From positions 1 to 24,675 of the forward strand of contig CAVTZU010000012.1 of NCBI GenBank assembly GCA_963739305.1: a DNA stretch of 24,675 nt, read 5' to 3'. The position numbers were made by a program, and so were the translations under genes. This DNA is from Candidatus Bathyarchaeota archaeon. GTDB lineage: Archaea; Thermoproteota; Bathyarchaeia; Bathyarchaeales; Bathycorpusculaceae. Position 1 is the first letter of the stretch. Each line of letters opens with the position of its first letter. Shown here in pieces: positions 8,001-24,616 of the stretch. The notes beneath the pieces are model-generated. The model was not told the origin of the DNA. It did no database searches and saw only the letters and a program-made list of their open reading frames with translations.

Positions 8001-8338
8001 ACGCCAAACTTCTCAAGAACACCTTCCTTGTCAAGCTGAACCCCACAGTTGAGAGCCGTTTGTCCTCCGAAGCCAAGAAGTATTCCGTCGGGGGTTTCTT
8101 TTTCGATCACTCTTGTCACATGCTTCGAAGTCACTGGCAGAAGGTAGACTTTTCCAGCGAGGTGAGGGTCGGTTTGAATCGTGGCTATGTTGGGGTTGAC
8201 GAGAACGGTCTCGATGCCCTCTTCTCTCAGAGCTTTGAGGCATTGACTCCCCGAGTAGTCGAATTCCGCGGCTTCACCGATCTTTATAGCTCCGCTGCCG
8301 AGAATCAGAACTTTTCTTATCCAATCAAACTTTGGCAT
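5060..8338 (-). CDS. carB: Carbamoyl-phosphate synthase large subunit
   Basis: LGSGAIKIGEAAEFDYSGSQ, NPNIATIQTD, two ATP-grasp halves (IEVNARMSRSSALASKATGYP; IECNLRASRS), C-terminal MGS-like domain; 1092 aa. Confidence 0.98.
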   Translation of the reverse strand: MPKFDWIRKVLILGSGAIKIGEAAEFDYSGSQCLKALREEGIETVLVNPNIATIQTDPHLAGKVYLLPVTSKHVTRVIEKETPDGILLGFGGQTALNCGVQLDKEGVLEKFGVKVLGTPIKTIEDTEDRELFRQAMINAQISIPKSGSATSVQEALALADGIGYPVIVRVAYTLGGKGSGVAYNDTELRDIVSRALAQSMISQVLVEEYLTHWKELEYEVMRDYADNCLTVCNMENIDPMGVHTGDSIVVAPSQTLSNAEYHSLREASIKAIRSLGVIGECNIQWALNPRCLDYRPIEVNARMSRSSALASKATGYPLAYIAAKLSVGYLLPELMNKVTGVTTACFEPALDYVVVKYPRWDLQKFRNVDHHLGPQMKSVGEVMAIGRCLEEALQKAVRMLDTGKRGLVCNSDEKYAEPSEKLRDEIANPTDERFFKIVKALKNGLSIEEIYRLSGIDPFFLHKLQNVINMEKRLRSASLDKSECLSLIREAKRLGFSDEQIAIAMKTDEMLVRKTRKQSGIVPVVKQIDTLAAEWPAKTNYLYLTYGGDEDDIDFSASKSKVIVLGSGVFRIGSSVEFDWCSLNTIWALKKNGIQEAIMINYNPETVSTDYDMSDKLYFEELTKERILDIYEKENPLGVIASVGGQIPNNLALKLDSLGVKLLGTSAESIDRAEDRAKFSALVDDLWISQPDWKALTDLEEVKTFADKIGYPVLVRPSYVLSGSAMRVAHSENELENYLALATKVSPQHPVVVSKFIRNAREVEVDGVSDGDDTLIGAIIEHVEDAGTHSGDATMSIPSQTLTARVESDIEDYTNRIAKELKIKGPFNIQYLVKDGQIDVIECNLRASRSMPYVSKTRGVNLIGLATQVMLGKKLKDVGILGLPPVRHVGVKVPQFSFMRLSGADPVLGVEMLSTGEVACLGESFTDALSKALLSADFKIPSAGGSVLITVGGKELKKQIVPLAKQLSQMGFQIYATQHTAEAIMDAGEKGVSVLHKVREAGRKPNIADYIREGKIDLVVNIPLTSASREQEDVLRDEYTIRRLAIEYNIPVLTNLELASALVKILKDEEDGYELTLRSLNEYLETVSSAQW

Positions 8339-8340
8339 CT

Positions 8341-9486
8341 CTATTTTCCTCCCAGTTTCAAGAAATCATCAAAAAGAAATTCTGTATCTAGAGGCCCTGG
8401 CTCTGCCTCGGGATGCCACTGAACGCCGAACGCTGGGTGACGTCTGTGTCTTACGGCTTCAACCGTCTTGTCGTTTGCGTTAATGAACCAAACGGACAAG
8501 TCAGTGCCTTTCACTGAGTCAGGGTTCACCGCGTACCCATGATTCTGCGTTGTGATGTAACATCTTCCCGTTTCCAAGTCAAGCGCAGGCTGGTTCTGCG
8601 ATCGGTGACCATACTTCAGCTTGAACGTGTCTCCGCCCATGCCAAGAGTCAAAAGTTGCGTGCCCAAGCATATTCCAAGCACCGGAACGCCTTCTTCAAC
8701 AAGCTCTCTCACGCACTTCGCCGTTTTGACGCATCTCTTAGGATCTCCTGGACCGTTGCTTATCACAACACCATGAGGCCTGTACTCCAGGATCTCGCTC
8801 GAGGAAAAATCGTAGGGGACTCGGACGACCTCTACTTCGCGTCTCAGCAGGCCTCGCAGAATGCCATATTTCACGCCGCAGTCGATCACCACTATTCTCT
8901 TGCATGCGCCAACGCCGTGGAACACGGGTTCTTTGATGGTAACCTCGCCAACAAGATCTCTCGAATTAGGATCCTGAACCGCCCTCATCTGCCGCTGAAG
9001 CTTCTCTAGGTCTGGCTCGTCACCTTCCTTACAGACTTCAAGTACTCCATTCATGACGCCCTTGACACGAAGTTTCTTCACTAGCTTTCTTGTATCAATT
9101 CCCCAAATGCCCGGCACACCCTCTTCCGCGAGCCACTCATCGAGCGATTTACGTGACTGCCAATGAGAAGGATCTTTGCATAATTCGTGGATAATCAGCG
9201 CTTTCACTTTGATGCTATCAGATTCAAAATACTTCAAAAGCCCGTTCTCCGAGTCCCCTGGAGGAACACCGTAATTGCCTACGAGCGGATAAGTCAACGT
9301 TAAGATCTGCCCATTATACGATGCGTCTGTCAGAGCCTCAGGATACCCCACCATAGATGTTGAGAACACGACTTCGCCAGAAACTTGTCTTGCTGCACCA
9401 AACCCAAAACCTGAGAAAATAGACCCGTCTTCGAGAAGCAAGAGCGCTTCAACGCTTTCTTTTGGTCTCGCTAATTTCTGGTTCAA
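8341..9486 (-). CDS. carA: Carbamoyl-phosphate synthase small (glutaminase) subunit
   Basis: LLLEDGS, GEVVFST, SNGPGDP, GICLG (catalytic Cys), TQNHGYAV, QWHPEA; directly upstream of carB. Confidence 0.98.
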   Translation of the reverse strand: MNQKLARPKESVEALLLLEDGSIFSGFGFGAARQVSGEVVFSTSMVGYPEALTDASYNGQILTLTYPLVGNYGVPPGDSENGLLKYFESDSIKVKALIIHELCKDPSHWQSRKSLDEWLAEEGVPGIWGIDTRKLVKKLRVKGVMNGVLEVCKEGDEPDLEKLQRQMRAVQDPNSRDLVGEVTIKEPVFHGVGACKRIVVIDCGVKYGILRGLLRREVEVVRVPYDFSSSEILEYRPHGVVISNGPGDPKRCVKTAKCVRELVEEGVPVLGICLGTQLLTLGMGGDTFKLKYGHRSQNQPALDLETGRCYITTQNHGYAVNPDSVKGTDLSVWFINANDKTVEAVRHRRHPAFGVQWHPEAEPGPLDTEFLFDDFLKLGGK

Positions 9487-10577: not shown

Positions 10578-11537
10578 ATGAATTACCGAAATCTCGGCAA
10601 ATCTGGCCTTAAAGTATCACAGATCTGTCTGGGAACCAATAATTTCGGTGGACAGATCAATGAAGAAGCTTCCATAAAGATAGTTAACAAGGCTATCGAC
10701 TGCGGGATAAACGTCATAGACACAGCAAACATATACACGGGAGGCAAGTCTGAAGAAATAATTGGAAACGCCGTGAAGAGCCGCAGGGACGAAGTCGTCC
10801 TAGCAACAAAAGTGGGATTCGGCGCCAGTGAAGGACCAAACCGGACCGGGCTCTCGCGCAAACGTATTCTTTCTCAGGTTGAGCACAGTTTGAGAAGCTT
10901 ACAGACAGACTTCATCGACATCTATTATCTGCATCGCTTCGACCCTGAAACGCCTCTTGAGGAGACGCTTCGAACGTTCGACTCCCTCGTACGCAACGGA
11001 AAGGTGAGGTATATAGCGTGCTCCAATTTTTCGGCTTGGCAGATAGCCAAAGCCCACGAGATCTGCGAGGCGCATGATTTGGAGAAGTTCATCGCGGTTC
11101 AACCACCCTACAATCTTCTACAAAGAGACATTGAGAAAGACATTATCCCCTATTGCCAGCAAGAAGGATTAGGGATTCTAACATACACGCCGCTGATGGG
11201 AGGTTTTCTAACCGGAAAATATTCGAAAGGTGCGCATCCGCCAACAGGCAGCAGGTTCGAGTACAATCCGAGACTCTGGGAACGCGCGAACAAAGAATCG
11301 AATTTTGCAGTTCTAGAGCAGATTGAAAGTGTGGCTAACGAAGTCGGCATATCCGTTTCAAAATTAGCCATTTCGTGGATACTGAAAAACCCGGCGATAA
11401 CAGCGCCCATCGTGGGGGCTTCAAGCGCAGAACAAGTCGAGGAAAACTGTAAAATAGCCGAAATTAACCTCAAAGACGAAACCTATCAGAGACTAAACGA
11501 GTTGACAAAGGGCCTAAGCTTTGCACTGTACTCCTGA
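10578..11537 (+). CDS. Aldo/keto reductase
   Basis: LGKSGLKVSQICLGT, IDTANIY, LATK, SLRSLQTDFIDIYYLH, GKVRYIACSN, QPPYNLL, PIVGAS. Confidence 0.95.
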   Translation: MNYRNLGKSGLKVSQICLGTNNFGGQINEEASIKIVNKAIDCGINVIDTANIYTGGKSEEIIGNAVKSRRDEVVLATKVGFGASEGPNRTGLSRKRILSQVEHSLRSLQTDFIDIYYLHRFDPETPLEETLRTFDSLVRNGKVRYIACSNFSAWQIAKAHEICEAHDLEKFIAVQPPYNLLQRDIEKDIIPYCQQEGLGILTYTPLMGGFLTGKYSKGAHPPTGSRFEYNPRLWERANKESNFAVLEQIESVANEVGISVSKLAISWILKNPAITAPIVGASSAEQVEENCKIAEINLKDETYQRLNELTKGLSFALYS

Positions 11538-11820: not shown

Positions 11821-12588
11821 GTGATGAAGGGGGCAAGTGGATTGGACCTTAGAGGTAAAACGCTGATTGTAACAGGAGCTTCAAGGGGAATTGGCCGAGC
11901 TTTGGCTTCAGAACTGGCTCAGAATGGTGTCAACCTTGTCTTGAACGCCCGAAGCGGTGCACTCTTGGATGAGGTGGCCACTGCCGCTAGAGGGAAAGGT
12001 GTGTACGCATTGACAGTGGTAGGTGATGCCGCGTTAGCCAGCAACGCCCGGAAAATGGTGGAAGCCGCGATTGGTATTGGCGATTTCGTCGGTTTCATTC
12101 ACAACGCCGGAATCGCTCATCCTGGTCCATTCTTGTATGAACTGGATGAGGCCAAGTTTGAGGATGTTTGGCGATCCAACGTGTTAGCTGGTTACCAGAT
12201 CGCGCGTTTCTCTTATCCAGAACTGCGGCGAAGGAAGAGTGGCTTGGCGGTCTTCTTTGGGTCAGGAGCTGCGGAGATGTACTTAGAAGGCACTGGAGCC
12301 TACTGCCTCTCCAAGGCCGCGGAAGAGCATTTGGCGAAACAACTTGCCGTTGAGGCTCCAGAGATCACTTGCTTCGTGTATCGACCTCTGGCTGTCGACA
12401 CTGAGATGCAGAAGAGTGGCCGTGAAGCAAAGGGCAGCGGGGCCAAGGTGTTGCACCGCGTATTCGGAGACTTGAAGGAGAGAGGGCTCCTAACTCCCGA
12501 AGCGTCCGCGAGAGCGTTAGTGCAGATAATCCAAAATGACCCGCGCAGCTTCCACGGCAAGATAGCTACCTACAAGGACGGTTTATAG
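11821..12588 (+). CDS. Short-chain dehydrogenase/reductase (SDR)
   Basis: IVTGASRGIG Rossmann motif, HNAG, YCLSK (YxxxK), VDTEMQ. Confidence 0.93.
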   Translation: MMKGASGLDLRGKTLIVTGASRGIGRALASELAQNGVNLVLNARSGALLDEVATAARGKGVYALTVVGDAALASNARKMVEAAIGIGDFVGFIHNAGIAHPGPFLYELDEAKFEDVWRSNVLAGYQIARFSYPELRRRKSGLAVFFGSGAAEMYLEGTGAYCLSKAAEEHLAKQLAVEAPEITCFVYRPLAVDTEMQKSGREAKGSGAKVLHRVFGDLKERGLLTPEASARALVQIIQNDPRSFHGKIATYKDGL

Positions 12589-12634: not shown

Positions 12635-12700
12635 GTTTGCTCTTGAATACTTGGAGTGGAACATTAGATTTGTTGCACTATAGGAATGAGATACTGTTCA
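12635..12700 (+). repeat. Degenerate third copy of the ~75-nt intergenic element
   Basis: GGAACATTAGATTTGTTGCACTATAGGAA aligns to GGAACATTAGATTTATTGTTCTATATGAA at 21182-21210. Confidence 0.6.
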
Positions 12701-12761
12701 GAAAAAGAAAATGACGGCGGGCCATCGGGCCTGTTCATTCCTAGCATTTGCAGCTGATGAT

Positions 12762-12845
12762 TGAATTAGATGCTGTTCCACAAGGGATAAGAACGTATAA
12801 TCTGATAGTGTTCTCTTGACAGGTTGATGAGGAGAGGTCTTCTTG
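12762..12845 (+). promoter_or_regulatory. Promoter/5'UTR of STAND paralog 1 (duplicated at 21281-21364)
   Basis: CAAGGGATAAGAACGTATAATCT (12781-12803) identical in both copies, BRE/TATA-like; GAGGAG Shine-Dalgarno-like sequence before TTG. Confidence 0.75.
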
Positions 12846-15800
12846 GCATCCATTGAACGTGAACGTGTTCCGAGTCCACGTCCTATCGCTGCAAGAGAGA
12901 TACCTCTCATCGACAGAGTCGAAGAAATGAAACTCTTGAAGGAAGCTGTCGACAGGACGATTCAAGGTGAGGGCGGTCTGGTTTTTCTCTATGGAGAGGC
13001 CGGAATCGGTAAGACAAGATTGGCGAGAGAGCTTAGGGCTTATGCACATCTTCGTGGAATGCGTGTTCTTTACGGCAGATGTCCTGCTCTGTTCAGAATG
13101 GATGGAGTTCCTCCTTACATTCTTTGGAAGGAGGTTATCAAAGACTATTTGGAAACGTGTACAATTGAGCAATTGGACAGGGTCATCGGCTTTTATCCTG
13201 CTGAAATTGCCAAACTTGTTCCTGAACTCAATCAAAGACTCAGAACAATCCCTCAGTCCTACCAGATAAGTCCTGAGCAGGAGCAAAACAGATTGTTTGA
13301 AGCAGTTTCACAATTCGTCACCAACATCTCTAGGGAAACTCCTCTACTCATCGTTCTTGACGATTTGCAATGGACTGATCCGTCTTCGCTCTTGTTACTA
13401 CATTATCTGGCTCGCGGCGTTCAGAAAACACCTCTACTTCTTCTGGGAGCTTATCGCAGCACAGACATCGATGCAAAGCATCCGTTGTCTCCGGTCTTGA
13501 CGGAGTTGAAGAGAGAGCGGTTGCCGGTTTCCATCTCTTTGAAACGAATGTCTCGAGACGACGTTTCAGAAATGATCAAACAGATACTGGAGCAAGATGA
13601 AGTTCCACCAGAATTCTGCAGTCTGGTCTACGAGAAGACGAGAGGCAACCCGTTCTTCGCCGAGGAGGTCATAGAATCTCTGAAAGAAGAAGAGGTCATC
13701 CACAGGGAGGGAAACAAGTGGAAGTTCAAAGAAACTTCCAAGATCGAGTTTCCAGAAAGCGTTAGAAATGTCGTTAAGACAAGGCTTAATCGTTTGGATA
13801 GTGAATGTCAGAACGTCTTGACCCTGGCTTCCTTTGTTGGAAACGATTTCACGTTGGAAGCAATGTGTGCACTCACTGGAATCGAAGAGAACAAGCTTCT
13901 TGAATTGATGGACAAGATGCTCGAGACAGGACTGGTCAAAGAGAGGGAGATCCGTGGAGAAGGCATCTGCTCTTTTGCCGACATATTGGTTAGGGATGTC
14001 GTGTATGAAGACGTTAGTCTTCTGAAGAGGAAGAGTCTTCACCGGGTTGTCGGGAACGCCCTCGAAAAAGTCTACGCTAAGAAGATTGACGAGCATTTTG
14101 GAGAACTGGCGTCCCATTTTCTCGAAGGTGGAGAGAAGAACAAAGCGCTTGAATATTTCTTCAAAGCCGGAGAAAAAGCCGCAAAGATTTATGCCAATGC
14201 AGAGGCGGCCTCGTACTTCCAGTCCGCACTTAAACTACTGGAGGACGAGAGAAATGAGATTCGAAAAAGAGGAGATGTTCTTGAAAGGCTTGGTGACATC
14301 AAGAATCTCGTAGGCGAATATGATTCTTGCATTAGATATTGGACTGAAGCGCTAGAGCTTTGGGAACAAATCGGTGAGAAAGAAAAGGCTTCAAGGTTGC
14401 ACCGCAAGACAGCCAACGTTCTTTGGATGGTAATTGGCGACACGGAGAAGGCCGCAGAACATCACGAGATGGCTTTGAGAGTTTTGGAGAAGGAACCTGA
14501 AAGTGCCGAATTAGCGAGTCTCTTTGAAGACATGGCCCGCTTCTATTCTCGCACCCAGGATGAAACTAAAGCTCTTTCTTGGGCTGAGAAAGCAATTGAG
14601 CTGGCCAAAAAACTCAACGATCATGAAGTCATTGCACGTTCTTACGGCACTCTGGGAGTGATCTTCGCTGAAACTGGGAAAGCAAAAAAGGCAATTGAAT
14701 GCCATGAAAGATCCTTGAGGATAGCGCTTGATAACGGTTACATGGACATCGCATTGCGTGCCTACAACAACGTTTCAGCAGAGCTAGATACTGAAGGAGA
14801 AAAAGAGAAAGCATTGGAGTTTGCCGTAAAAGGATTCGAACTGGCAAAGAAAATTGGAGCTATAAGATGGATATCTTGGATAGGCACAGGCCTTTCATCG
14901 ACATACTTTGAAATGGGAGATGCGGCAAAGGGACTTCCTTTGGCTGAAGACTCGGTTTCACTGGATAGGAAGGCGGGTGACCTTACTAATCTTTCCAATT
15001 CCCTGAACAACCTCGGATACATTCACCTCATATTGGGCGAACTGGATAGGAGCGAGCTATACTTCAAGGAAGCTCTAGTCCTTGCGCAAAAAGCGAAAAA
15101 TAACCAGCAAACTGGCTACAGTCATGCACTCATTGGATGGCTCTATTCCTACAAAAGCGAATACATCAAGGCAGAAGAGCAATTTAGGAAGGCATTTGAC
15201 GTATTTGAAAAGGCCGGAATGAAATACTACCAAGCATATACCTCTTTCAGGCTTACCTGGGTGAACACAGAGCTAGGAGAAATTGACAAAGCCCAAAACT
15301 TCCTTGCAAAAACAGTCGAATATGCTGTCGAAGCAGGAGACAAATTGCTCATTGCTTTTGCGGACGCTGGCAAAGGAATGCTGTTTCGAACCCAGAAAAG
15401 GTGGAAAGAATCTATAGAGTTTTTCGAAAAGAGTCTTCAAGAACTCGACACTCTCAATTCAAGGCGATGGAGTATCTACTGGCCCGCTAAACTGAGCTTT
15501 GAAAACGCCCGGGTTTACCTGGAAAGAGACCAAAAAGGCGATAAAGAGAAAGCCCGCGATCTCCTCAACCAAGCACTTGAAATGTTTCAGAAATTGAACG
15601 CCAAAATAGAGGTTGAGAAAACTACGAGATTGCTTGAGACTTTGCACCCGCTTCAGGCACAAACGCTTGAAGGGGGGATCATCACAGCGAATCTTGAACA
15701 TGGCGATGTTCAAATCAACATCACGGCTGCGCCCAGAGAACTAAAGATCGGTGAGAGTCTAGAACTGGAAATAGAAGTTACAAATACTGGCAAAGTTGGA

Positions 15801-16097
15801 ACCATTCAGCTTACGAAGATCACAGAAGCCATCCCTGAAGGTTTCGCTGTAATCAAGAAGCCTGAATTGTACCGCGTAGAAGGCAATGATCTCAACTTGA
15901 AAGAGAAACTGCTTGAACCTCTCAAAAGAGAGGAAATCAAGTTTGTTCTGACACCGAAGACTCAAGGCACGTTCAACATCAAACCAAGAATAGTGTATCT
16001 TGACGAAAATCGCAAAGAGAAAACCTGTGAGCCTAAGCCACTAAGCATAACGGTCAAGGAACTCGGCATCAAGGGCTGGCTTAAAGGAGAAAGATAA
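12843..16097 (+). CDS. STAND-class (AAA_16/MalT-like) NTPase with TPR array and C-terminal Ig-like beta-sandwich, paralog 1
   Basis: LIDR pre-Walker motif, GEAGIGKT Walker A, LIVLDDLQW Walker B, TRGNPFF GxP motif, ~40-aa helical repeats, beta-rich C-terminus (ELEIEVTNTG...IPEGF...GTFNIKP). Confidence 0.9.
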   Translation: MASIERERVPSPRPIAAREIPLIDRVEEMKLLKEAVDRTIQGEGGLVFLYGEAGIGKTRLARELRAYAHLRGMRVLYGRCPALFRMDGVPPYILWKEVIKDYLETCTIEQLDRVIGFYPAEIAKLVPELNQRLRTIPQSYQISPEQEQNRLFEAVSQFVTNISRETPLLIVLDDLQWTDPSSLLLLHYLARGVQKTPLLLLGAYRSTDIDAKHPLSPVLTELKRERLPVSISLKRMSRDDVSEMIKQILEQDEVPPEFCSLVYEKTRGNPFFAEEVIESLKEEEVIHREGNKWKFKETSKIEFPESVRNVVKTRLNRLDSECQNVLTLASFVGNDFTLEAMCALTGIEENKLLELMDKMLETGLVKEREIRGEGICSFADILVRDVVYEDVSLLKRKSLHRVVGNALEKVYAKKIDEHFGELASHFLEGGEKNKALEYFFKAGEKAAKIYANAEAASYFQSALKLLEDERNEIRKRGDVLERLGDIKNLVGEYDSCIRYWTEALELWEQIGEKEKASRLHRKTANVLWMVIGDTEKAAEHHEMALRVLEKEPESAELASLFEDMARFYSRTQDETKALSWAEKAIELAKKLNDHEVIARSYGTLGVIFAETGKAKKAIECHERSLRIALDNGYMDIALRAYNNVSAELDTEGEKEKALEFAVKGFELAKKIGAIRWISWIGTGLSSTYFEMGDAAKGLPLAEDSVSLDRKAGDLTNLSNSLNNLGYIHLILGELDRSELYFKEALVLAQKAKNNQQTGYSHALIGWLYSYKSEYIKAEEQFRKAFDVFEKAGMKYYQAYTSFRLTWVNTELGEIDKAQNFLAKTVEYAVEAGDKLLIAFADAGKGMLFRTQKRWKESIEFFEKSLQELDTLNSRRWSIYWPAKLSFENARVYLERDQKGDKEKARDLLNQALEMFQKLNAKIEVEKTTRLLETLHPLQAQTLEGGIITANLEHGDVQINITAAPRELKIGESLELEIEVTNTGKVGTIQLTKITEAIPEGFAVIKKPELYRVEGNDLNLKEKLLEPLKREEIKFVLTPKTQGTFNIKPRIVYLDENRKEKTCEPKPLSITVKELGIKGWLKGER

Positions 16098-16174
16098 CCT
16101 CAAACCAGTTTTGCGAAAACGTTGTAGCGCGCGCCTTGGTTTTGCATTCATTAGCGGGTCACTCTAGTGAGCAT

Positions 16175-16610
16175 CTACTTCTCCAGAATGCTCTTCAGAT
16201 TGTTTAAGGATGCCTCGACACCGAAAATCTTGTCCCCGAACAATCCGCAAATTGAGCAAAGAATCCCCCAACCCCAACAAGCACATGCATATGTGACTTC
16301 AGTTCCCCCCTCAACGGGTTTCAAGGTATATGTTAGAGTCAAATGCGATATTCCCCCTGCGATACCTTTCGAGCTATACATAATCTTCTCGTTTTTGAGA
16401 CTCTCCGTGATCTCCAGATCATATTTCGCGTGCTTCTCAGTCACGTGAGCAGATGCACCCAGTCTATACTTGTCCTCGGGAGTGCGCACCTCGGAAATGA
16501 ACGCGACACTCTTCCAGTACATCCATTCTAGCATCTTGTCGAAAGCCAAGCATTTCCCAGACTTTCTCAGGCGGAGCCTTGATTACAACTGACTTTTCTA
16601 TCCTAACCAA
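16175..16610 (-). pseudogene. SRPBCC/START (polyketide cyclase-like) protein with a 1-nt insertion near 16550
   Basis: AGGAG SD then TTG at 16610 gives MVRIEKSVVIKAPPEKVWEM, typical of SRPBCC; the rest (LAFDKMLEW...YTLKPVEGGTEVTY...SLNNLKSILEK) is one base out of frame. Confidence 0.8.
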
Positions 16611-16900
16611 AATAACTCCTCCCTAATTGTCTATCCAACTATCTCTTCTTCAGCATATAAGATATCTAGGGCGCGCGGTTAGTTCTGGAAGCTTTTGGGT
16701 TGAGATAGAGGTTCTGATTCATGGCGGAGGATGCTCTAACATTAATGGAAGCTGCTATCTCTACCACTATAATGCACCTAATTTAATGAATGCTATGAAG
16801 AAATCGTTCTCAGGAACCCCTTCAATCTATTTCTTCATCTTCAACCAGAGTTCTGCAGTTTTAGCGCACGCGGTATAATACCATCCACAATAGACTTGGG

Positions 16901-16946
16901 TTTTTTGGGTTGGGATAAGACTTTACCCCCAAACCCAAAGAAAAAA
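16901..16946 (-). terminator. Imperfect hairpin with oligo-T run downstream of the DUF6326-like gene
   Basis: TTTGGGTTGGG...CCCAAACCCAAA inverted repeat; minus strand reads TTTTTTCTTT about 50 nt after the stop. Confidence 0.45.
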
Positions 16947-16997
16947 CTGACCTTTCGTGAATGGTATGCCTAGTCGCTACCGAATGCGCTTTGAAGG

Positions 16998-17387
16998 TTA
17001 ACTCTTCGGCCACTTGTACGCGTACCAGACAACTAAAGCAGATAGTATAGTTCCGACGACAGAACCAACTGCTAGGACGGATTGGTTCTCAAGCTTCTGA
17101 ACTAGCAATATCAGCGAAAACGCAACGTAAACCAAACCCACAACGATGTTCAGACCGCGATTCAATCTATCCCGCAAACGCACAGAAAGAAACGCCATAA
17201 TCAAGGAAACTGTAAACAAGACAACAAGTGCCAACAAAAACTGAGGACTTATTGCAAGACCGTACTTCACGCCAGATCTTATCTCATCAAGCACACCAGG
17301 CTCGTAAAACTCAAAAACCAGACTCGTCAACCCGCCGACGGTATTAACCAACCACAAAACAGCAAGCCAAATCTTCACATCCTCCAC
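16998..17387 (-). CDS. Small 4-TM membrane protein, DUF6326-like; start reassigned to GTG 17387
   Basis: GGAGGTG SD then MEDVKIWLAVLW; later LKDR-like NRGLNIVVG and IVWYA-like VVWYAYKWP; TATA-like CTATTATA at about 17441-17448. Confidence 0.7.
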   Translation of the reverse strand: MEDVKIWLAVLWLVNTVGGLTSLVFEFYEPGVLDEIRSGVKYGLAISPQFLLALVVLFTVSLIMAFLSVRLRDRLNRGLNIVVGLVYVAFSLILLVQKLENQSVLAVGSVVGTILSALVVWYAYKWPKS

Positions 17388-17530
17388 CCCCACCACCTCC
17401 TCTTTACCAGAAAGACAATCCAAGGAATCATGCCAAGTACTATAATAGTTTAGCGCGCGCGCCCTTTCCAAAAAAGTCAAGGTAGTCTTCCCGGGTGAAA
17501 GCGTTTATTTATCAAATGCCTTCATTATGA

Positions 17531-18034
17531 TTGCTGGTGAGTCGGGTGAAGAAAACCGTTGAAGAACAAATGAGAACCCTGCTTACTAAATACACGTACC
17601 CACCGGTTGAAGTGGCAATTCCAATTCTCGAGAGAGCTGGTCGGGGAGAGGAGGAACTTGCAAATCAAGTTCATGAAGTAGACATGTCCGTGTTAAGTGG
17701 TATAATGAAGATTCTGAACCTGAAGGAAAAGAATATGAGAACTGTATCCAAAATGTTCGGAGTGTTGCTCAGTTATTATGGTCAGAAATACGAGCCCGTT
17801 GAGTTGTCGGAAAATCGCTTTTGTTTGAGCGTCTCAGACTGTCCCATGCTGCACGTGGGCAAGAACGTGAGCACCGAAGTCAGATGCAAGTTCTGTGATG
17901 TACTCTGCTCTTCAACAGCTAAAGCTATGGCGCAGCTCGTGCTCGGCGAGGCAGGCAGTTGTAGCTGGGATAAAGCCCTAATCAAAGGCGGCCGTAAATG
18001 CACAGTAGCGTTTGAACTTGTGAAGACAAAATGA
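17531..18034 (+). CDS. V4R/ATC-hydrolase-like small ligand-binding protein (4 Cys)
   Basis: VSDCPM...FCDVLC...IKGGRKCTVAF pattern; ATGA overlap with the next gene. Confidence 0.6.
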   Translation: MLVSRVKKTVEEQMRTLLTKYTYPPVEVAIPILERAGRGEEELANQVHEVDMSVLSGIMKILNLKEKNMRTVSKMFGVLLSYYGQKYEPVELSENRFCLSVSDCPMLHVGKNVSTEVRCKFCDVLCSSTAKAMAQLVLGEAGSCSWDKALIKGGRKCTVAFELVKTK

Positions 18035-19026
18035 ACCAATCAAGAACGCTCTTGATTGTCATTCTCGTAGGAACTTCCTTAGTAGCTGTTTTTCTAGCTT
18101 GGCGAAACATCACGTCGCCGATCGATTTTGCCGACCTCAAAACCGTGTTGACAACAACAACAGAAACGTTCGGAGGCCTGCTGGGCATAATAACGGCTGG
18201 ACTCATGTTCACCCATGGAAAATTCAGTGAACTCGCAACTGAACTCGACGAAAAATCACCTGACTACCTTTCAGGCACGCTATCCTTGGAAAAAGTTCAG
18301 ACGATCGGAAACAACCTCCTTGCTCTACGAAAATCGTTCTCGCTACTCGAAACTCAAACAACCGTAGAAGAAGAGAAAAATCTCTACAGGAGAGTAATTG
18401 AGAAAGCATCATCAATGTTTGTGGGCTTCGCGGTTCTGTCAGACCTTAAGTTGACACAACAGGGACTAGCCGAGACCGATCTGATGATTTCAGGAATGGA
18501 TCCTCAGCTTTATGTGAATTACAAAAAAGAGAGAAATCAAATTAAAAAGGAATGGCAAATACTCGTCATAATAAAGCAAATAGTAGACACGTGGGAAGGA
18601 CCAAAAACATTAGTCCTAGAAAAACACGAAAAGAGAACGTCACTGCAGCAAGACCTTAGGAACTCCACTTCCCTCCTAGCGTTAAAAGAAAGACTTGACA
18701 AAGACTCAAAACAGGTCCGTGCCGAAACCGAAGAAATCTACAACGAACTGGCCGAAGACATCGGCAAAATCGGCAGACAACTTCATCAAGACAGAATACC
18801 TCAATTACTCTCTCAGATGGAAAACGCAAACACCGTCCGAGGCAAATACTTCTATCTCGTACTTGCTTTCATCGCGACACCTCTTTTTATAAACCTATTC
18901 ATACTGCCACAACTATCAATAGGAACAGCATCATTCTTGCAACCCATCATTTCAATCACAAGTTCATTGTGCGTGATGGGAATAGCTTTCCTTCTCCTCT
19001 ACATCAACAGAATGCTAAACGTCTAA
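18031..19026 (+). CDS. Hypothetical membrane protein: 2 TM + helical/coiled-coil soluble region + 2 TM
   Basis: Hydrophobic N- and C-terminal pairs around a charged helical region; translationally coupled to 17531-18034. Confidence 0.75.
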   Translation: MNQSRTLLIVILVGTSLVAVFLAWRNITSPIDFADLKTVLTTTTETFGGLLGIITAGLMFTHGKFSELATELDEKSPDYLSGTLSLEKVQTIGNNLLALRKSFSLLETQTTVEEEKNLYRRVIEKASSMFVGFAVLSDLKLTQQGLAETDLMISGMDPQLYVNYKKERNQIKKEWQILVIIKQIVDTWEGPKTLVLEKHEKRTSLQQDLRNSTSLLALKERLDKDSKQVRAETEEIYNELAEDIGKIGRQLHQDRIPQLLSQMENANTVRGKYFYLVLAFIATPLFINLFILPQLSIGTASFLQPIISITSSLCVMGIAFLLLYINRMLNV

Positions 19027-19050
19027 GCAAAGCGCGCTTCCTTTTCGAGT

Positions 19051-19124
19051 GTATTGTTTGCAGGATTGCCATCAGAATGGGACATTAGATTTATTGTGCT
19101 ATATGAAAAAGCATTACAGTTAAA
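19051..19124 (+). repeat. ~75-nt non-coding direct repeat, copy A
   Basis: GTATTGTTTGCAGGATTGCCATCAGAAT-GGG-ACATTAGATTTATTGTGCTATATGAAAAAGCATTACAGTTAAA; about 3 differences from copy B. Confidence 0.95.
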
Positions 19125-19196
19125 GTGTGTGCGCTGGCGTTTTACCAGAAAACTTAACTCGTGAAACACACCAGTGGGCTAATAGGAGTGGTCTCT

Positions 19197-19666
19197 ATGG
19201 AAAAAGATCCAATTCTGGTTATTGACAAGCCCGATTTTGTCGTGAGGCTTCATAAAGAATGGATTGACGTTGATTTGAAAAGGGAGGCAAAGCAAAACTT
19301 GAACGTGTAATTGAGAAGGATCCATTACTCAGCAAAACAATAGGGTATGTTCTCCAGAGCAAGATTCCCTCGGATGTTGAACTGTGCGACATAAATTCCG
19401 TTGAGGTTGACGGTAAGGGGCAACTGAAACTGGTCATACCACGGCATGTGGACATTGTCCTTCCATTGGGCGTTGATGATGCAAATAGACTGGCCTGTGA
19501 GCTAAAGGATTTGATACCGTTGGCGAAAACGAAGAAGAAAGCCGACAGAAAAAGAGTGCCTCTCCACATGTGGTGGCCGACCTATATCGGTCGAATCTGG
19601 AATTCGCTACTAGTCAAGGATATCGGTGAAACGCAAACTGGTGCAGAAATGCTGACTTGGAAGTGA
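19197..19666 (+). pseudogene. Hypothetical soluble protein with a 1-nt deletion at about 19278-19284
   Basis: AGGAG SD, ATG 19197 MEKDPILVIDKPDFVVRLHKEWIDVDLK; adding one base at AAAAGGG continues GGKAKLERVIEKDPLL...VIPRHVDIVLPLG into ORF 19448-19666. Confidence 0.7.
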
Positions 19667-20141
19667 TTGCAATTTCAGAGAATGAGAAGGATTATCAGAT
19701 TACTTTCAGGTTACGGCAAATACTTTAAATATACTGGTTCTCCTCAGCGGTTTTACATTTACAGGCATCACGATACTGCTTAGTCTGTATCCTGTTCTGG
19801 GAAGTCTGACAGTTCAGTTTATACTTTTCTTTCTGGCGTCTTTGTTCTTCTTGTTTCATGTTATGTTAGCATGGTTTAATTCTAATTTGATGAAGCTTTC
19901 CAGAAATCTTCCTCCAGTGACGAGAGAAATAGTAGCTTTTCAATCGTCTAATAATATCGAGTTACATGCTATTACAGTTAGCAGTCGTGTTGATGTTTCT
20001 ATTTGGAATCTCATCTATCTTTCGTTGGCGTCAGGAATTGTGTTGGCTATATTCGTCATCGTTCAAATCCAAGGGATAAAAAGGGTCGGAGAGGTTCCAT
20101 TTCAACGAAGTGGAAGACAAGACATAGAATCACTCTGTTGA
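19663..20141 (+). pseudogene. Hypothetical 3-TM membrane protein, probable 1-nt deletion near 19695
   Basis: The frame of ORF 19842-20141 is open back to 19686 (SDYFQVTANTLNILVLLSGFTFTGITILL) with no start; GTG 19663 overlapping the previous TGA gives VIAISENEKDY one base out of frame. Confidence 0.55.
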
Positions 20142-20267
20142 CACCACAGCGCACGCTCATTGTTGAAAAAAGGAGGGTTATTGCGTTTTTTGAATAGTTG
20201 TATTCCTTCGATTGTTGTGACGTATTGGAATCCGCACGCGCGGGAGGTTTACGTTGAGATGACGTGT

Positions 20268-20283
20268 CAAAAGTTATAAATAA
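20268..20283 (+). promoter_or_regulatory. Putative BRE/TATA for the SnoaL-EthD pair
   Basis: CAAAAGTTATAAATAA about 40 nt upstream of 20319. Confidence 0.55.
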
Positions 20284-20318
20284 CGATTAGAAAGAAATGG
20301 CAATTATTCGTTTAAGAA

Positions 20319-20771
20319 GTGATTGATTTGGAGCCTGGAGAAGTCAAGACTACTGTACATAATATGCTTGAAGCGTTCAACAAGAGGGACTTGAAAAGTA
20401 TGCTTTCTTTCTTTACAGATGATGCGACATATGTACGACCTGAAGGAATTTTCAAGGGAAAAGAAGAAATAGGGCGGTATTACGCCTGGACCTTTTCTAA
20501 CTTCTCAGAGCTGACAATTACAGAGAAAGGGATCATTGTCGAAGGAGATAAGGCTGTCCTCGAGTTTGTTATGAAAGGAATTTCTCCAAGGGGTGGCGGC
20601 AGAAATCTACGGCTCGCAGGACTGGACCTATTTGAGTTCAAAAACGAAAAGGTTCAGCAACTTCATATCTATCAAGATAGGCTTTCAACGGCCAAACAGT
20701 TAGCAAATGGGTGGTTTGAGAACATGATAATAAACGGTGTCGTTAATCGGATGGAGAAAGGTCTGCGTTAG
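20319..20771 (+). CDS. SnoaL-like / NTF2-family protein
   Basis: MLEAFNKRDL..MLSFFTDDA, FKGKEEI, IVEGDKAVLEF, LFEFKNEKV...YQD. Confidence 0.85.
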   Translation: MIDLEPGEVKTTVHNMLEAFNKRDLKSMLSFFTDDATYVRPEGIFKGKEEIGRYYAWTFSNFSELTITEKGIIVEGDKAVLEFVMKGISPRGGGRNLRLAGLDLFEFKNEKVQQLHIYQDRLSTAKQLANGWFENMIINGVVNRMEKGLR

Positions 20772-20813
20772 CACGCGCGCGAGGTATCGATCGATCTAGG
20801 AGGTGAGAGCTGG

Positions 20814-21134
20814 ATGGTGGTGAAGATAATGATGAAAGTGTATGCGAAGGAGGGCATGAGCAAAGACGAGTTCGTCAACCATTGGCTGACCAAGCATGCT
20901 CCATTAGCGAAAAAGAAATTCGGTGACAAACTCAAGAAGTACGTGATCAACATCGTTATGTCAGCCGATGGCGAAGAGCCTGGGTACCAGGGCACAGCGG
21001 AGCTCTGGTTCGAAAACATGAAGACGCTTCAGAAAATTATGGCCTCTCCAGCATTTGAGAAAGTCATGGCAGCCGCCGAGAACTTTGCGAGAAAAGGTAC
21101 GATGGTGATCCTCGAGGAACACACAATTATATGA
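20814..21134 (+). CDS. EthD-family dimeric alpha/beta-barrel protein
   Basis: KEGMSKDEFVNHWLTKHAPL, KYVIN, YQGTAELWFE; GGAGGTGA SD. Confidence 0.85.
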   Translation: MVVKIMMKVYAKEGMSKDEFVNHWLTKHAPLAKKKFGDKLKKYVINIVMSADGEEPGYQGTAELWFENMKTLQKIMASPAFEKVMAAAENFARKGTMVILEEHTII

Positions 21135-21152
21135 TCTGTGCGCGCTTTCGGG

Positions 21153-21227
21153 GTATTGTTTGCAGGATTGCCATCAGAATAGGAACATTAGATTTATTGT
21201 TCTATATGAAAAAGCATTACAGTTAAA
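21153..21227 (+). repeat. ~75-nt non-coding direct repeat, copy B
   Basis: Near-identical to 19051-19124; flanked by GCGCGC at 21140 and 21230. Confidence 0.95.
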
Positions 21228-21280
21228 ATGCGCGCCCATAGCAAGAGGCTTACTAGTTCTCTTCAGTTGGGGACAAAGGA

Positions 21281-21364
21281 TGAATTAGATGTTGTTCCGC
21301 AAGGGATAAGAACGTATAATCTAATAACATTCTATTGACGATTTGATGAGGAGGCGTCTTCTTG
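21281..21364 (+). promoter_or_regulatory. Promoter/5'UTR of STAND paralog 2
   Basis: Colinear 84-nt homolog of 12762-12845, with 23 identical nt around TATAAT. Confidence 0.75.
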
Positions 21365-24300
21365 GGATCCATTGAACGCGAGCGTGTTCCCACTCAACGT
21401 CCCATCCCTGCAAGAGAGATCCCGCTCATCGACAGAGTCGAAGAAATGAAACTTCTGAAAGAGGCCGCCGACAGGACGATTCAAGGCGAGGGCGGCCTCG
21501 TGTTTCTTTATGGAGAGGCGGGAATCGGAAAGACAAGGCTTGCCAGAGAACTTGCCACATATGCGCACTTGCGTGGGATGCAGGTTCTCTATGGCAGGTG
21601 TCCTGCACTGTTCAGGATGGATGGAGTTCCACCCTACGTAATCTGGAAGGAAATCATCAAAGAGTATCTGGAAATAAGCACTCCTGAGCAATTGTACAGG
21701 GTGATAGGCTACTATCCGGCTGAAGTGGCAAAACTGGTTCCAGAGCTCAGCCAGAAGCTAAGATCGATTCCTCAGTCTTTTCCCATAGGTCCTGAGCAGG
21801 AGCAAAACAGGCTTTTTGAAGCTGTCTCGCAGTTTGTCACGAACATTTCCAGAGAGGCTCCTTTGCTTGTGGTTCTTGACGATTTACAGTGGACCGATGC
21901 ATCCTCACTTCTACTATTTCACTATCTGGCTCGTGGCGTGCAGAAAACGCCATTACTTCTTTTGGGAGCCTACCGTAGCACTGACATCGACGCTGAACAT
22001 CCGCTGTCGCCAGTCTTAACGGAATTGAACAGGGAACGCCTGGCGCGCCCTGTCTCTCTAAAACGAATGTCTCTTGAGGATATTTCGGAGATGATTAAGC
22101 AGATATTAGAGCAGGACGATGTTCTAACCGAATTCTGCAAGTTAGTCTATGAGAAGACAAGGGGCAACCCCTTTTTCGCCGAGGAAGTGATAAAATCCCT
22201 GAAAGAAGAGGAAGCGATTTATCGAGAGGCGAACAAGTGGAAAATCAAAGAAGTCACGAAGATCGAGTTTCCTGAGACCGTAAAGAGCGTCATAAAGACA
22301 AGAACAGGTCGACTAGATGATGAACAGCGAAATGTTTTGACGATGGCTTCTCTTGTTGGAAATGACTTTACGTTTGAGGCTTTGCAAGGAGTCACTGGTT
22401 CAAACGAAGATGAACTGCGCAAGATAGTAGATGGGCTGCTCAAAACAGGATTGCTCAAGCACAGAGATGTGCGAGGAGAAGACGTGTGTTCTTTTGCTGA
22501 TGTAATTGTGAGGGACGTGGTGAGTGAGGAGGTTGGAACCTATGAACGCAAGAAACTCCACGAAGTAGTCGGAACGGCTCTGGAGAAGGTTTATGCTGCA
22601 AAGATTGATGAACACCTAGGCGAATTGGCCTTACACTTTCTTGAAGCAGGAGACAAAGACAAGGCGCTTGGCTATTTTTTGAAAGCAGGAGACAAGGCGA
22701 CCGATGTTTATGCAAACAACGAAGCTGTTTCCTACTTCCAGTCTGCTCTCAAACTTCTTGAAAGCAAAGAAGGCGAAACTCGGGAAAGAGCACGCGTTCT
22801 TGAGAGACTTGGAGAAATCAAAATGCTTATTGGAGAAAATGACCTTGGCGTGAAATACTTGAATGAAGCTTTGCTACTGTGGAAGCAACTTGATGAGAAA
22901 GAAAAAGTTGCAAGACTACACCGCAAGATGGCATTTATTCTTTGGACCGAGATTGGCGATACGGAGCAGGCTCAGGAGAATTTAGAAAAGGCTTTAAGGA
23001 TCTTGGAAGCCGGACCTGAAAACGTAGAATTGGCAGCACTCTATGAAGCTTGGGCTTTCTTTTCAGTATTTCACCCCGGAGATATAACGAAAGCTCGCTC
23101 ATGGGCTGAGAAAGCCCTCGAACTTGCAAAGAAACTGAATGCTTCTGAAGTTGCTGGAAGCGCATACCATGACTTGGGAATCGTGTTCGGCGCCACGGGA
23201 GAGCAAAAGCAAGCCGTTGAATGCATGGAAAAAGCCTTGAAAATAGCGCTCGACAACAGTTACGTTAGAAATGCTGTACTTGCCTATAACAACCTTGCCG
23301 CTGAACTCCCAGCAGAGGAAAATGAAAGAAGATTAGATTGTCATGAAAAAGCATTGGAGCTGTCAAAAAAAGCAGGGATGATTACGGGCATATCCTGGGG
23401 TCAATACGCTATGGCTACAGAGTATTTCCGCATGGGTGACATTGAAAAGGCACTTACCTTGGCGGAGGAATCAGACACGTTGAGTAGGAAGATAGGTAAT
23501 TTGTTTAATATGTGCTGCTCCACATCTTTTCTTGGACTTCTATATCATGTTAAGGGAGAATGGAACAAAGGCGAGCAGTGCCTAAAAGAATCGTTAAGCA
23601 TATCCCAAAAAATAAAGAATCCTCAAGAAATCGCGGCTAGTTACTGGGGGCTTGGCTGGTCCTACTATGACATGGGCCAATATTCTAAGGCCAAAGAATT
23701 CTTTGACGCGCTGGCTGAAGTCAATGAGAAAAGAGGAAAAGCCCTCCAAGTATATGGTTATAGATGGCTTGCTATGAACGACATAGAGCTTGGCGATATT
23801 GACAAAGCAAAAGCCCTATTGGACGACATTCACAAGTTTGCCCACGAAATACAAGACAAACAACTCATCGCCGATGAAGACACAAGGAGAGCTATGCTGC
23901 TGCGTGGAGAGAAAAGATGGGACGAATCCATCGAACTCTTCAAAAGAAGCCTTCAAGAAAACGAGGCTTTGGGTGCAAGACGTTGGAACGCGTATTGGTT
24001 CGCCAAACTTGTTCTCTATGAATATAGCCGTGTGTATTTGGAGAGAAACCAACCGGGCGACAAAGAAAAAGCCCGCGACCTGCTCAACCAAGCTTTGCAG
24101 ATTTTCCAGAAAATGGAAGCCAAGAAAGACATCGAAAAAACAATGACGTTGCTCGAGGCCTTGAATCCTCCTTCAACCCAAACCCTTGAAACAAAAGTCA
24201 GTCCAAAAGCTCATGAGGTCATTGACCTCCAGTGCAACATGATAGCTACTCCGAAAGAGCTGAAAATCGGTGAGAGCCTCGAGTTGGAAATAGAACTCTC

Positions 24301-24616
24301 AAACACGCGCAAGGAAGGGTCCATGTTGCTAACCAAGATAGCAGAGGTTGTTCCAGAAGGTTTCGCGGTAGCAAAGAGACCTGAATCCTACCGCGTCGAA
24401 GGCAATTGCCTCAACATGAAAGAAAAGCAGCTTGATCCCATGAAAAAAGAGGAAGTGAAGCTTGTTCTAATACCAAAGATCCAGGGCACGTTTCACATCA
24501 AACCAAAAATAACATATCTTGATGAGAATGGCAAGGAGAAAACCTGCGAGCCCAAACCTGTAAGCATAACGGTTAAGGAGCTTGGAATCAAAGGTTGGCT
24601 CAAAGGAGAAAGATAA
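21362..24616 (+). CDS. STAND-class NTPase with TPR array and C-terminal Ig-like domain, paralog 2
   Basis: Same motifs (GEAGIGKT, LVVLDDLQW, TRGNPFF), same length (1084 aa) and same last 17 residues as paralog 1. Confidence 0.9.
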   Translation: MGSIERERVPTQRPIPAREIPLIDRVEEMKLLKEAADRTIQGEGGLVFLYGEAGIGKTRLARELATYAHLRGMQVLYGRCPALFRMDGVPPYVIWKEIIKEYLEISTPEQLYRVIGYYPAEVAKLVPELSQKLRSIPQSFPIGPEQEQNRLFEAVSQFVTNISREAPLLVVLDDLQWTDASSLLLFHYLARGVQKTPLLLLGAYRSTDIDAEHPLSPVLTELNRERLARPVSLKRMSLEDISEMIKQILEQDDVLTEFCKLVYEKTRGNPFFAEEVIKSLKEEEAIYREANKWKIKEVTKIEFPETVKSVIKTRTGRLDDEQRNVLTMASLVGNDFTFEALQGVTGSNEDELRKIVDGLLKTGLLKHRDVRGEDVCSFADVIVRDVVSEEVGTYERKKLHEVVGTALEKVYAAKIDEHLGELALHFLEAGDKDKALGYFLKAGDKATDVYANNEAVSYFQSALKLLESKEGETRERARVLERLGEIKMLIGENDLGVKYLNEALLLWKQLDEKEKVARLHRKMAFILWTEIGDTEQAQENLEKALRILEAGPENVELAALYEAWAFFSVFHPGDITKARSWAEKALELAKKLNASEVAGSAYHDLGIVFGATGEQKQAVECMEKALKIALDNSYVRNAVLAYNNLAAELPAEENERRLDCHEKALELSKKAGMITGISWGQYAMATEYFRMGDIEKALTLAEESDTLSRKIGNLFNMCCSTSFLGLLYHVKGEWNKGEQCLKESLSISQKIKNPQEIAASYWGLGWSYYDMGQYSKAKEFFDALAEVNEKRGKALQVYGYRWLAMNDIELGDIDKAKALLDDIHKFAHEIQDKQLIADEDTRRAMLLRGEKRWDESIELFKRSLQENEALGARRWNAYWFAKLVLYEYSRVYLERNQPGDKEKARDLLNQALQIFQKMEAKKDIEKTMTLLEALNPPSTQTLETKVSPKAHEVIDLQCNMIATPKELKIGESLELEIELSNTRKEGSMLLTKIAEVVPEGFAVAKRPESYRVEGNCLNMKEKQLDPMKKEEVKLVLIPKIQGTFHIKPKITYLDENGKEKTCEPKPVSITVKELGIKGWLKGER

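Follow-up and report, generated by a model that had tools for sequence, protein, structure and literature searches.

We analysed an entire contig (C12; hereafter the window) of 24,675 nt from the 2.3-Mb genome, in 36 contigs, of a Candidatus Bathyarchaeota archaeon, focusing on two large genes of its + strand that encode STAND NTPases with tetratricopeptide repeat (TPR) arrays. MalT-type regulators and NLR/Avs immunity are both built on STAND NTPases; how a signal is relayed by members that lack a fused effector is poorly understood, in archaea especially. The two open reading frames (ORFs), each of 1084 aa, lie at 12843..16097 (copy 1, P0001) and 21362..24616 (copy 2, P0002), with a gap of 5,264 nt between them; the copy 2 stop codon is 59 nt from the contig end. 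A preliminary description, made from the nucleotide sequence, had noted a pair of 1084-aa paralogs about 5.3 kb apart, and its coordinates were reproduced exactly; by BLASTP the two proteins are 64% identical (701 of 1087 positions, E = 0).

Pfam AAA_16 matches residues 24-200 of both proteins (copy 1, E 1.6e-29 and 104.0 bits; copy 2, E 1.8e-28 and 100.6 bits; cut-off 32.6), and the Walker A (GEAGIGKT) and Walker B (LLxVLDDLQW) motifs are the same in the two copies, agreeing with the intact N-terminal STAND NTPase that had been described. TPR models, including TPR_12 (E 4.3e-43 in copy 1 and 1.6e-41 in copy 2) and TPR_MalT (E 1.5e-14), span residues ~417 to 946, corresponding to ~13 TPRs per copy. 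These are followed at 962-1071 by a BatD/DUF11-like match that is marginal, scoring 25.1 and 24.5 bits where the cut-off is 24.1, and both copies end in the invariant tail ELGIKGWLKGER.

Domain boundaries come from an AlphaFold2 model of copy 1 that drew on 53 homologues (mean pLDDT 80.6, pTM 0.58). After 22 disordered residues comes the nucleotide-binding oligomerisation domain (NOD; 12912..13976, +), made up of a P-loop nucleotide-binding domain (residues 24-205), a helical domain (216-282) and a winged-helix domain (286-378). The TPR sensor array (residues 393-934; 14019..15644, +), whose variable part is 561-860, is modelled as helix pairs, and a disordered linker (936-953) joins it to an immunoglobulin (Ig)-like beta-sandwich (residues 956-1071; 15708..16055, +) with strands modelled over 956-1074. 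The tail KELGIKGWLKGER (16056..16094, +) is modelled with a low-confidence helical turn at 1076-1080, with pLDDT below 50 for residues 1077-1084. The Ig-like domain (963-1071) and tail (1072-1084) of copy 2 lie at 24248..24613 (+), and its tail is identical to that of copy 1. The long TPR array and C-terminal beta-sandwich read earlier from the translations were thus both recovered. The order of a nucleotide-binding domain with both Walker motifs, helical and winged-helix domains and a repeat sensor is that of the AAA_16 STANDs, while the profile match (marginal) and the modelled sandwich place the C-terminal domain with BatD/DUF11/CARDB-like Ig domains, as do structural atlas leads to DUF11/CARDB, with scores below 0.9.

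No catalytic or DNA-binding domain was found in either protein using Pfam, NCBIfam and the copy 1 model, as the preliminary description had it; the only domains detected were AAA_16, TPR and BatD-like, none of them a terminal effector. The same three sources revealed no fusion to a nuclease, TIR, SIR2, protease or other toxic effector, and Pfam and NCBIfam found no LuxR-type helix-turn-helix (HTH) at the C-terminus, where the model has the beta-sandwich. STANDs generally, though not universally, carry at least one terminal effector domain, according to passages of PMC6468293. That an output is normal for AAA_16 STANDs is nevertheless not supported in this genome, where all four strong AAA_16-TPR proteins are without a further output domain; those two that are encoded elsewhere than in the window, of 859 and 948 aa, consist of AAA_16 and TPR only. 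Calling the window proteins effector-less sensor receptors is therefore correct as to the missing effector but not as to its being unusual: absence of a fused effector is the rule among the AAA_16-TPR proteins of the source genome.

The only full-architecture solved structure near the top of a Foldseek search with the model was PH0952 of Pyrococcus horikoshii (PDB 6MFV; 6mfv_A, rank 2, E 5.1e-10, 736 columns), which shares the NOD, arm and TPR sensor, and whose TPR region matches the family profile at E 1.5e-13. PH0952 differs in having an N-terminal ArsR-like HTH effector and in lacking a C-terminal Ig domain (passages of PMC6468293). By sequence, the NOD of the window proteins has no solved relative; phmmer against PDB sequences found no significant match for the NOD alone or for the Ig domain and tail alone. 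The order of NOD, repeat sensor and C-terminal output, together with the TPR_MalT match, recalls E. coli MalT and the LAL regulators, although the window proteins lack their LuxR-type HTH and end instead in the Ig-like domain and a 13-residue tail. The best NOD similarity is to the kinase/cyclase-AAA_16-TPR fusions of TIGR03903 (TOMM kinase/cyclase fusion), with residues 9-469 aligning to model positions 470-924 (E 4.5e-57), and the close relatives P0060 and P0096 likewise have an N-terminal Pkinase domain; this match covers the NOD part only, however, reaching 193.7 bits against a curated cut-off of 705.75, and the window proteins have no kinase or cyclase. This kinase-AAA_16-TPR architecture is of the M. 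tuberculosis PknK type. The best explanation for both window proteins is that they are cytoplasmic AAA_16 (MalT/PknK-type) STAND NTPases of a Bathyarchaeia-specific clade.

The family and its C-terminal modules

A search of a 5.8-billion-protein collection yielded 5,833 matches at E <= 0.001 among 7,999 scored candidates, and the best 120 of these are all 60-97% identical to copy 1, bearing out the expanded family that had been suspected. Where the best 120 are named, it is in generic terms ("tetratricopeptide repeat protein", "predicted ATPase"), and the organisms named are Candidatus Bathyarchaeia and, once, Candidatus Njordarchaeum. Among species-representative genomes, close relatives were found at 24 of 27 confirmed loci; 20 of the 24 are in genomes titled Bathyarchaeia or Bathyarchaeota, and the remaining four are on short contigs of a metagenome-assembled genome (MAG) labelled Acidoferrum. 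The two window proteins belong to a strongly conserved Bathyarchaeia family. As to the Candidatus Acidoferrum contigs (L025, L030, L038 and L041; 3.6-8.7 kb), their family genes are of Bathyarchaeia type, with 59-67% identity, and L030 and L038 share the conserved upstream element described below; mis-binning of archaeal contigs is more likely than transfer to a bacterium.

We classified 121 family proteins (119 listed proteins plus the two of the window, omitting P0084, which is copy 2 itself). One hundred are NOD-TPR-Ig+tail proteins, 19 have a KaiC-like domain in place of the Ig domain and tail (NOD-TPR-KaiC-like), and two, P0060 and P0096, add an N-terminal Ser/Thr kinase to the Ig+tail form (Pfam Pkinase E 2.4e-53 in P0060), so that a search for kinase fusions, advised in the preliminary description, came out positive. 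The STAND Walker A motif is retained in 119 of the 121 proteins and Walker B in 115. The KaiC-like ends, by contrast with these NTPase domains, have a Walker A in none of 19 cases, their P-loop position reading LTSPSCDERD; they are thus inactivated, and both alternative C-terminal modules are non-catalytic. KaiC-like and inactivated KaiC-like (iKaiC) signalling domains of archaea were reportedly described by Makarova et al. in 2017, a study to which PMC5847659 and PMC6393860 refer. These 19 relatives end in such a Walker-A-less domain, unlike the window proteins, which end in the Ig domain and tail.

A FastTree tree, approximate and built on residues 1-930 only (120 rows, the fragment P0005 having been dropped), places at least six changes between the Ig+tail and KaiC states, and one change for the kinase. 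A KaiC-type clade (Shimodaira-Hasegawa-like support 99 and 97) encloses copy 1 together with P0004, a relative 89% identical to it. The KaiC-type protein P0006 is 84% identical to copy 1 up to residue ~925, and beyond that point the C-termini are unrelated. At the level of sequence, then, the tree and alignments show that one chassis can bear either the Ig+tail module or an inactivated KaiC-like domain, the two being interchangeable; recombination is the likely means of these swaps. We also considered that the tail might be a remnant of a KaiC N-terminal motif and dropped this idea, the junction sequences having only V-x-E in common. Copy 2 falls in a different deep clade from copy 1, by which a recent tandem duplication is rejected; the two copies are old paralogs.

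Conservation is uneven along the chassis. Mean pairwise column identity across 53 members is 0.79 in the NOD (1-410), 0.67 in TPR residues 411-560, 0.48 in 561-860 and 0.65 in 861-930, then 0.73 in the Ig domain and 0.95 in the tail. Averaged by region over six closer pairs, the ratio of non-synonymous to synonymous divergence (dN/dS) is 0.08-0.15 in the NOD and 0.30-0.43 in TPR residues 561-860, so that the entire protein is under purifying selection. The central TPRs thus appear to be under relaxed or diversified constraint rather than, at region-averaged resolution, positive selection. Their variability would fit a sensor surface with paralog-specific specificity, and does not by itself indicate an arms race. 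Protein length is constant over more than 100 distinct sequences. Among the closest pairs, dS is 0.12-0.31 in the TPRs and 0.55-1.06 in the NOD; the family genes are thus mosaics, probably produced by recombination or gene conversion among paralogs. At three loci from three MAGs (L021, L022 and L027), synonymous divergence of the TPRs is 3-5 times below that of the NOD in the same gene pairs. Distribution is patchy: P0001 was matched at E <= 1e-50 in nine of 61 related genomes, the source genome counted.

The Ig-like module in other proteins

Six ORFs of the source genome end in LGI[KR]GW. Besides the two STAND genes these are four NTPase-free genes, on contigs C15, C18, C20 and C9, encoding all-helical proteins of ~1100 aa that lack Walker A; of these, the one on C9 seems to be broken. 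Two more ORFs, on C27 (1205 aa) and C17 (fragmented), have a 100-aa domain after the Ig domain in place of the tail. A model of the C27 C-terminus (pLDDT 80.1) comprises an Ig sandwich (model residues 64-177) that matches cohesin, macroglobulin MG and CARDB folds at Z 8.9-11.4, and a domain of helices plus a hairpin (179-287) that matches MarR-family regulators (6pco_A, Z 9.0, rmsd 3.6, 79 residues aligned; 3cjn_A, Z 8.8, rmsd 2.2, 72 aligned), at Z values barely exceeding the level that the tool calls common. We assign this end domain, with moderate confidence and from its predicted fold, as a MarR-like winged HTH (wHTH).

With the final 152 residues of copy 1 as the query, a full HMMER scan gave 490 representative clusters at E <= 1e-3, of which 235 reach <= 1e-10 and 45 reach <= 1e-30. 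We classified the best 150 of these 490 by BLAST against exemplars. Most are helical scaffold-Ig proteins, and what follows the Ig domain is a KaiC-like domain (15), a wHTH-like domain (10), AAA (4), DUF835 (2), a cyclase (1), or the tail alone. Pfam confirmed KaiC in P0183, P0219, P0202, P0223, P0160, P0215 and P0178, AAA in P0182 and P0195, Guanylate_cyc (class III cyclase) in P0210 (E 1.8e-18) and DUF835 in P0254 (E 7.9e-17). It had been suggested that the Ig module be sought in fusion to kinases or cyclases, and fusions are in hand to the class III cyclase and also to KaiC-like, AAA, DUF835 and MarR-like wHTH domains. Their domain orders show the Ig domain standing, as the connector, ahead of wHTH, iKaiC, AAA, cyclase and DUF835 outputs. 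At E <= 1e-8 the module occurs in 37 of 301 genomes of the class, and the source genome, with eight matches, is among the highest.

Of the 121 STAND family proteins, the 102 with the Ig domain all have the tail motif, V-[KR]-E-[LM]-G-[ILV]-x-G-W-[LI]-[KR]-G, as do 98 of the best 150 Ig representatives; across the 102, the E, G, G, W and G of the motif never vary. In P0226 the motif is internal, ahead of a wHTH. Tails of the scaffold family are frequently lengthened by 3-7 mostly basic residues (GWLKGPxKKxR).

The scaffold-Ig genes on C9, C15, C20 and C27 (loci L012, L013, L015 and L019; four of six loci) adjoin very large extracellular-protein genes, encoding an S8 subtilase with CARDB repeats (1903 aa), SBP_bac_5, a dockerin/Big_3_5 protein (1402 aa) and a NosD/beta-helix protein; scaffold-Ig genes may be linked in regulation to extracellular degradation. 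Two scaffold-Ig genes, L012:6890-10205 on C9 and L018:7369-10460 on C17, are broken into two and four overlapping frames, respectively, and are either pseudogenes or assembly errors.

Candidate function and alternatives

We propose that the window proteins are ligand-gated oligomerising switches that present clustered, adaptor-type Ig+tail modules to a shared partner, a reading we judge a little likelier to be right than wrong. A ligand, different for each paralog, would bind the variable central TPRs (561-860) and release autoinhibition of the NOD; exchange of ADP for ATP would then let the protein oligomerise and thereby cluster its C-terminal Ig+tail modules. The clustered modules would act as a non-enzymatic adaptor output recruiting a downstream partner, one that would be common to the NTPase-free helical-scaffold proteins with the same terminal module. 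The preliminary description had the proteins signalling in trans through the Ig-like domain or tail, which remains the natural reading since the Ig domain and tail occupy the output position. Autoinhibition and a switch mechanism have been described for PH0952 (passages of PMC6468293), and parts of PMC5847659 describe archaeal signalling as working by protein-protein interaction over fused outputs, with KaiC-family domains as hubs.

Several points weigh against this proposal. No partner, ligand or oligomer has been observed, so that ligand binding, oligomerisation, recruitment and the identities of ligand and partner are all steps that we infer. No neighbour is conserved across family loci (see below), and genome context therefore names no pathway. 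BLASTP of the source genome found no stand-alone homologue of the wHTH, iKaiC, AAA, cyclase or DUF835 outputs, with a sole weak kinase match at E 6.8e-4, which leaves the Rosetta-stone partner missing there; the Pfam KaiC model hits two genes of that genome (contigs C4 and C17), to which we draw no link from the family. In the AlphaFold2 model, at low confidence, the tail docks nowhere, and the patchy distribution fits an accessory gene, a defence gene included, as well as it fits a regulator. Complex prediction for two Ig+tail copies (950-1084) gave a score of 0.00 against a mark of 0.42, with controls absent, and counts neither for nor against binding.

A more specific form of the proposal, which we think possible though unlikely to hold as stated, makes the Ig+tail module an archaeal coupling adaptor analogous to CARD/PYD or to the effector-associated domains (EADs) of bacterial NTP-dependent conflict systems. 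The sensor-only STAND-TPR and scaffold proteins would dock, homotypically or through the ELGIxGWLKG tail, onto Ig-bearing output proteins, the outputs being MarR-like wHTH, iKaiC, AAA, cyclase and DUF835 domains. According to passages of Kaur et al. 2020 (PMC7159879), which set out the EAD criteria, EADs are small non-enzymatic terminal domains on a core NTPase, further copies of which are fused to effector or signalling domains, and the core itself sometimes carries those outputs by direct fusion. That architecture, a terminal copy on the core NTPase plus copies fused to outputs, is what we find here. EADs, however, are mostly alpha-helical and their second copy is usually in an adjacent gene (passages of PMC7159879), whereas the module here is an Ig sandwich plus tail, most other Ig copies sit on a large helical scaffold, and no partner gene is adjacent. 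A second EAD copy may also be encoded elsewhere in the same genome; the source genome has six further copies of the module away from the pair, two of them with wHTH, on a large scaffold of their own.

Three other explanations have to be set against the proposed adaptor switch. The preliminary description offered a candidate NLR-like sensing system for viral proteins or for small molecules or peptides; in an immune role, the TPRs of an antiviral, Avs-like receptor would bind a viral protein and the oligomer would activate a toxic effector in trans through the Ig domain and tail. Avs proteins do share a STAND NTPase with a variable repeat sensor and a patchy distribution, and here too variation is concentrated in the sensor, occurrence is patchy even inside the genus, mosaic dS suggests recombination among paralogs, and the GC content of 12.8-24.7 kb is slightly low (44.9%, against 47.4% genome-wide and 49.8% in the first half of the window; ~6th percentile of the genome's 12-kb windows). 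Avs7/Dsr1 offers a precedent for module sharing between STAND and non-STAND proteins (parts of PMC13581612). Unlike Avs proteins, those of the window have no N-terminal effector, indeed no effector domain, no PADLOC Avs match and no defence context: in PADLOC-DB 2.0.0 (2023, preceding newer Avs families) they hit only a generic TPR model and P-loop models at E >= 0.003, six neighbouring ORFs and the scaffold family gave no specific match, and the window ORFs scanned included no defence or mobile-element gene, the neighbours being metabolic or of no assigned role. The NOD is also very conserved (0.79) and length constant, region-averaged dN/dS stays below 0.45 throughout, and the fused outputs of relatives are regulatory (wHTH, kinase, cyclase, iKaiC), not nucleases, TIR or SIR2. 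We therefore doubt the immune role and consider it quite unlikely.

It is improbable, too, that the tail serves as a weak signal for localisation, amphipathic or basic and active only when multimerised by the NTPase, so that the output is relocalisation to the membrane or another surface. The MinD-type membrane-targeting sequence is an analogy for a tail acting in this way, and the tail is short, C-terminal, predicted to be flexible with one helical turn, and has I, W and L flanked by K, to which scaffold-family proteins often add their mostly basic extensions; yet three invariant glycines in ten residues disfavour a helix, and P0226 keeps the motif internally, before its wHTH. We give equally little credence to the window proteins being ATP-dependent scaffolds, or assembly or co-chaperone-like TPR proteins, that do not signal and whose Ig+tail module is structural or client-binding. 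Their strongest sequence matches to solved structures are indeed scaffolding TPR proteins (LGN/Pins, kinesin light chain), they have no output domain and they are highly conserved, but the AAA_16 NOD with its winged-helix domain is a STAND switch module, and signalling architectures recur among relatives, with a kinase on the chassis and the Ig domain preceding wHTH and cyclase.

The family is a clean comparative handle in that one conserved chassis has repeatedly traded two non-catalytic C-terminal modules, and the same Ig module recurs on another scaffold, where DNA-binding, cyclase or ATPase outputs follow it. Should the module be a docking adaptor, it would define a network for signalling in the Bathyarchaeia, an uncultured lineage abundant in sediment and soil, and provide a concrete 135-residue bait for partner finding; were it a coupling adaptor in the narrower sense, Bathyarchaeia would run an NLR-plus-adaptor style network on a beta-sandwich module. 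If it is neither, this is a well-annotated but ordinary AAA_16-TPR expansion. We found neither the architecture nor a description of the tail in the literature searched, supplementary tables being outside its scope.

Upstream element, neighbouring genes and repeats

Both genes start at TTG, preceded by a GGAG(A/G)G Shine-Dalgarno motif. An in-frame TGA lies 15 nt before the TTG and many differences between the copies in the first 28 codons are synonymous, so TTG is the true start and no N-terminal domain is concealed upstream. A conserved promoter/leader (TTGAATyAGrTG ... TTCCACAAGnnATAAGAAC ... GGAG) runs up to the TTG of copy 1 at 12761..12842 (+), and its counterpart before copy 2, at 21281..21361 (+), is ~88% identical. 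The element is 80-85 nt long. Its core is present in 18 of 19 family-gene upstream regions, L039 being the exception, and in loci L020-L040 it lies at ~6920-7003, with the TTG start also kept; the consensus is TTGAATCAGrTG..TTCCACAAGCAATAAGAAC..TCTAATAGTGTTCTATTGATAGG..GGAG..CTTG. Element and start codon are conserved family-wide although the proteins share only 55-70% identity. A structured leader or riboswitch was considered and dropped: RNAalifold on the aligned element predicts no pairs and hence no consensus RNA structure, and the sole Rfam match of the window is a tRNA at 44-117, upstream of both genes. The element is probably a promoter/operator particular to this family, paired with a weak start codon. 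A role as a regulon mark in the source genome is not borne out, since its 19-nt core (with up to three mismatches) occurs at five genome sites; the STAND genes account for two of these, and of the remaining three, two are 31-50 nt before secreted-protein genes. This distribution suggests that the core is a candidate BRE/TATA-like promoter core.

Upstream of copy 1, the window encodes a beta-CASP RNase, an M24 peptidase and a methyltransferase, carAB-type carbamoyl-phosphate synthase genes (5060-9486, -), an aldo/keto reductase (10578-11537, +) shortly before copy 1 and, immediately before it, a short-chain dehydrogenase (SDR; 11821-12588, +). Between the copies are a weak SRPBCC-like ORF (16175-16549, -), a DUF6326 membrane protein (16998-17480, -), a Cys-rich 167-aa ORF (17531-18034), a 331-aa membrane/coiled-coil ORF (18031-19026), a SnoaL-like protein (20319-20771) and an EthD protein (20814-21134). 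The 331-aa ORF overlaps the Cys-rich ORF by 4 nt and has membrane helices at its termini and a long coiled coil; neither ORF has a Pfam, NCBIfam or PADLOC match. The absence of any kinase, cyclase or HTH gene from the window, claimed earlier, was confirmed among the ORFs scanned, which also yielded no integrase or transposase gene.

The idea that the pair and the genes it brackets form one system found no support in comparison. In addition to the different clades of the two copies, when the ORFs around 25 family loci were all compared with one another, no cluster proved common to more than four loci, the gene itself and its shadow frames excepted, and only one cluster reaching four. In five same-genus genomes the orthologues, reductase genes and intervening genes are not syntenic but at unrelated places; on a single contig of one of these genomes (G009), ~100 kb separate the SDR gene from the STAND orthologue. 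The bracketing of an island by the pair looks incidental. No specific PADLOC model was found for the intervening genes either.

A repeat of ~96 nt, bounded by GCGCGC, occurs at 19032-19136 and 21140-21235, and partially at ~12650-12690; its presence accounts for a second block of similarity upstream of both copies. The genome has ~12 full or partial copies, and same-genus genomes have many matches at 85-97%. The repeat may be MITE-like, or an intergenic repeat. One copy lies 20 nt past the stop codon of the AAA_16-TPR gene on contig C17.

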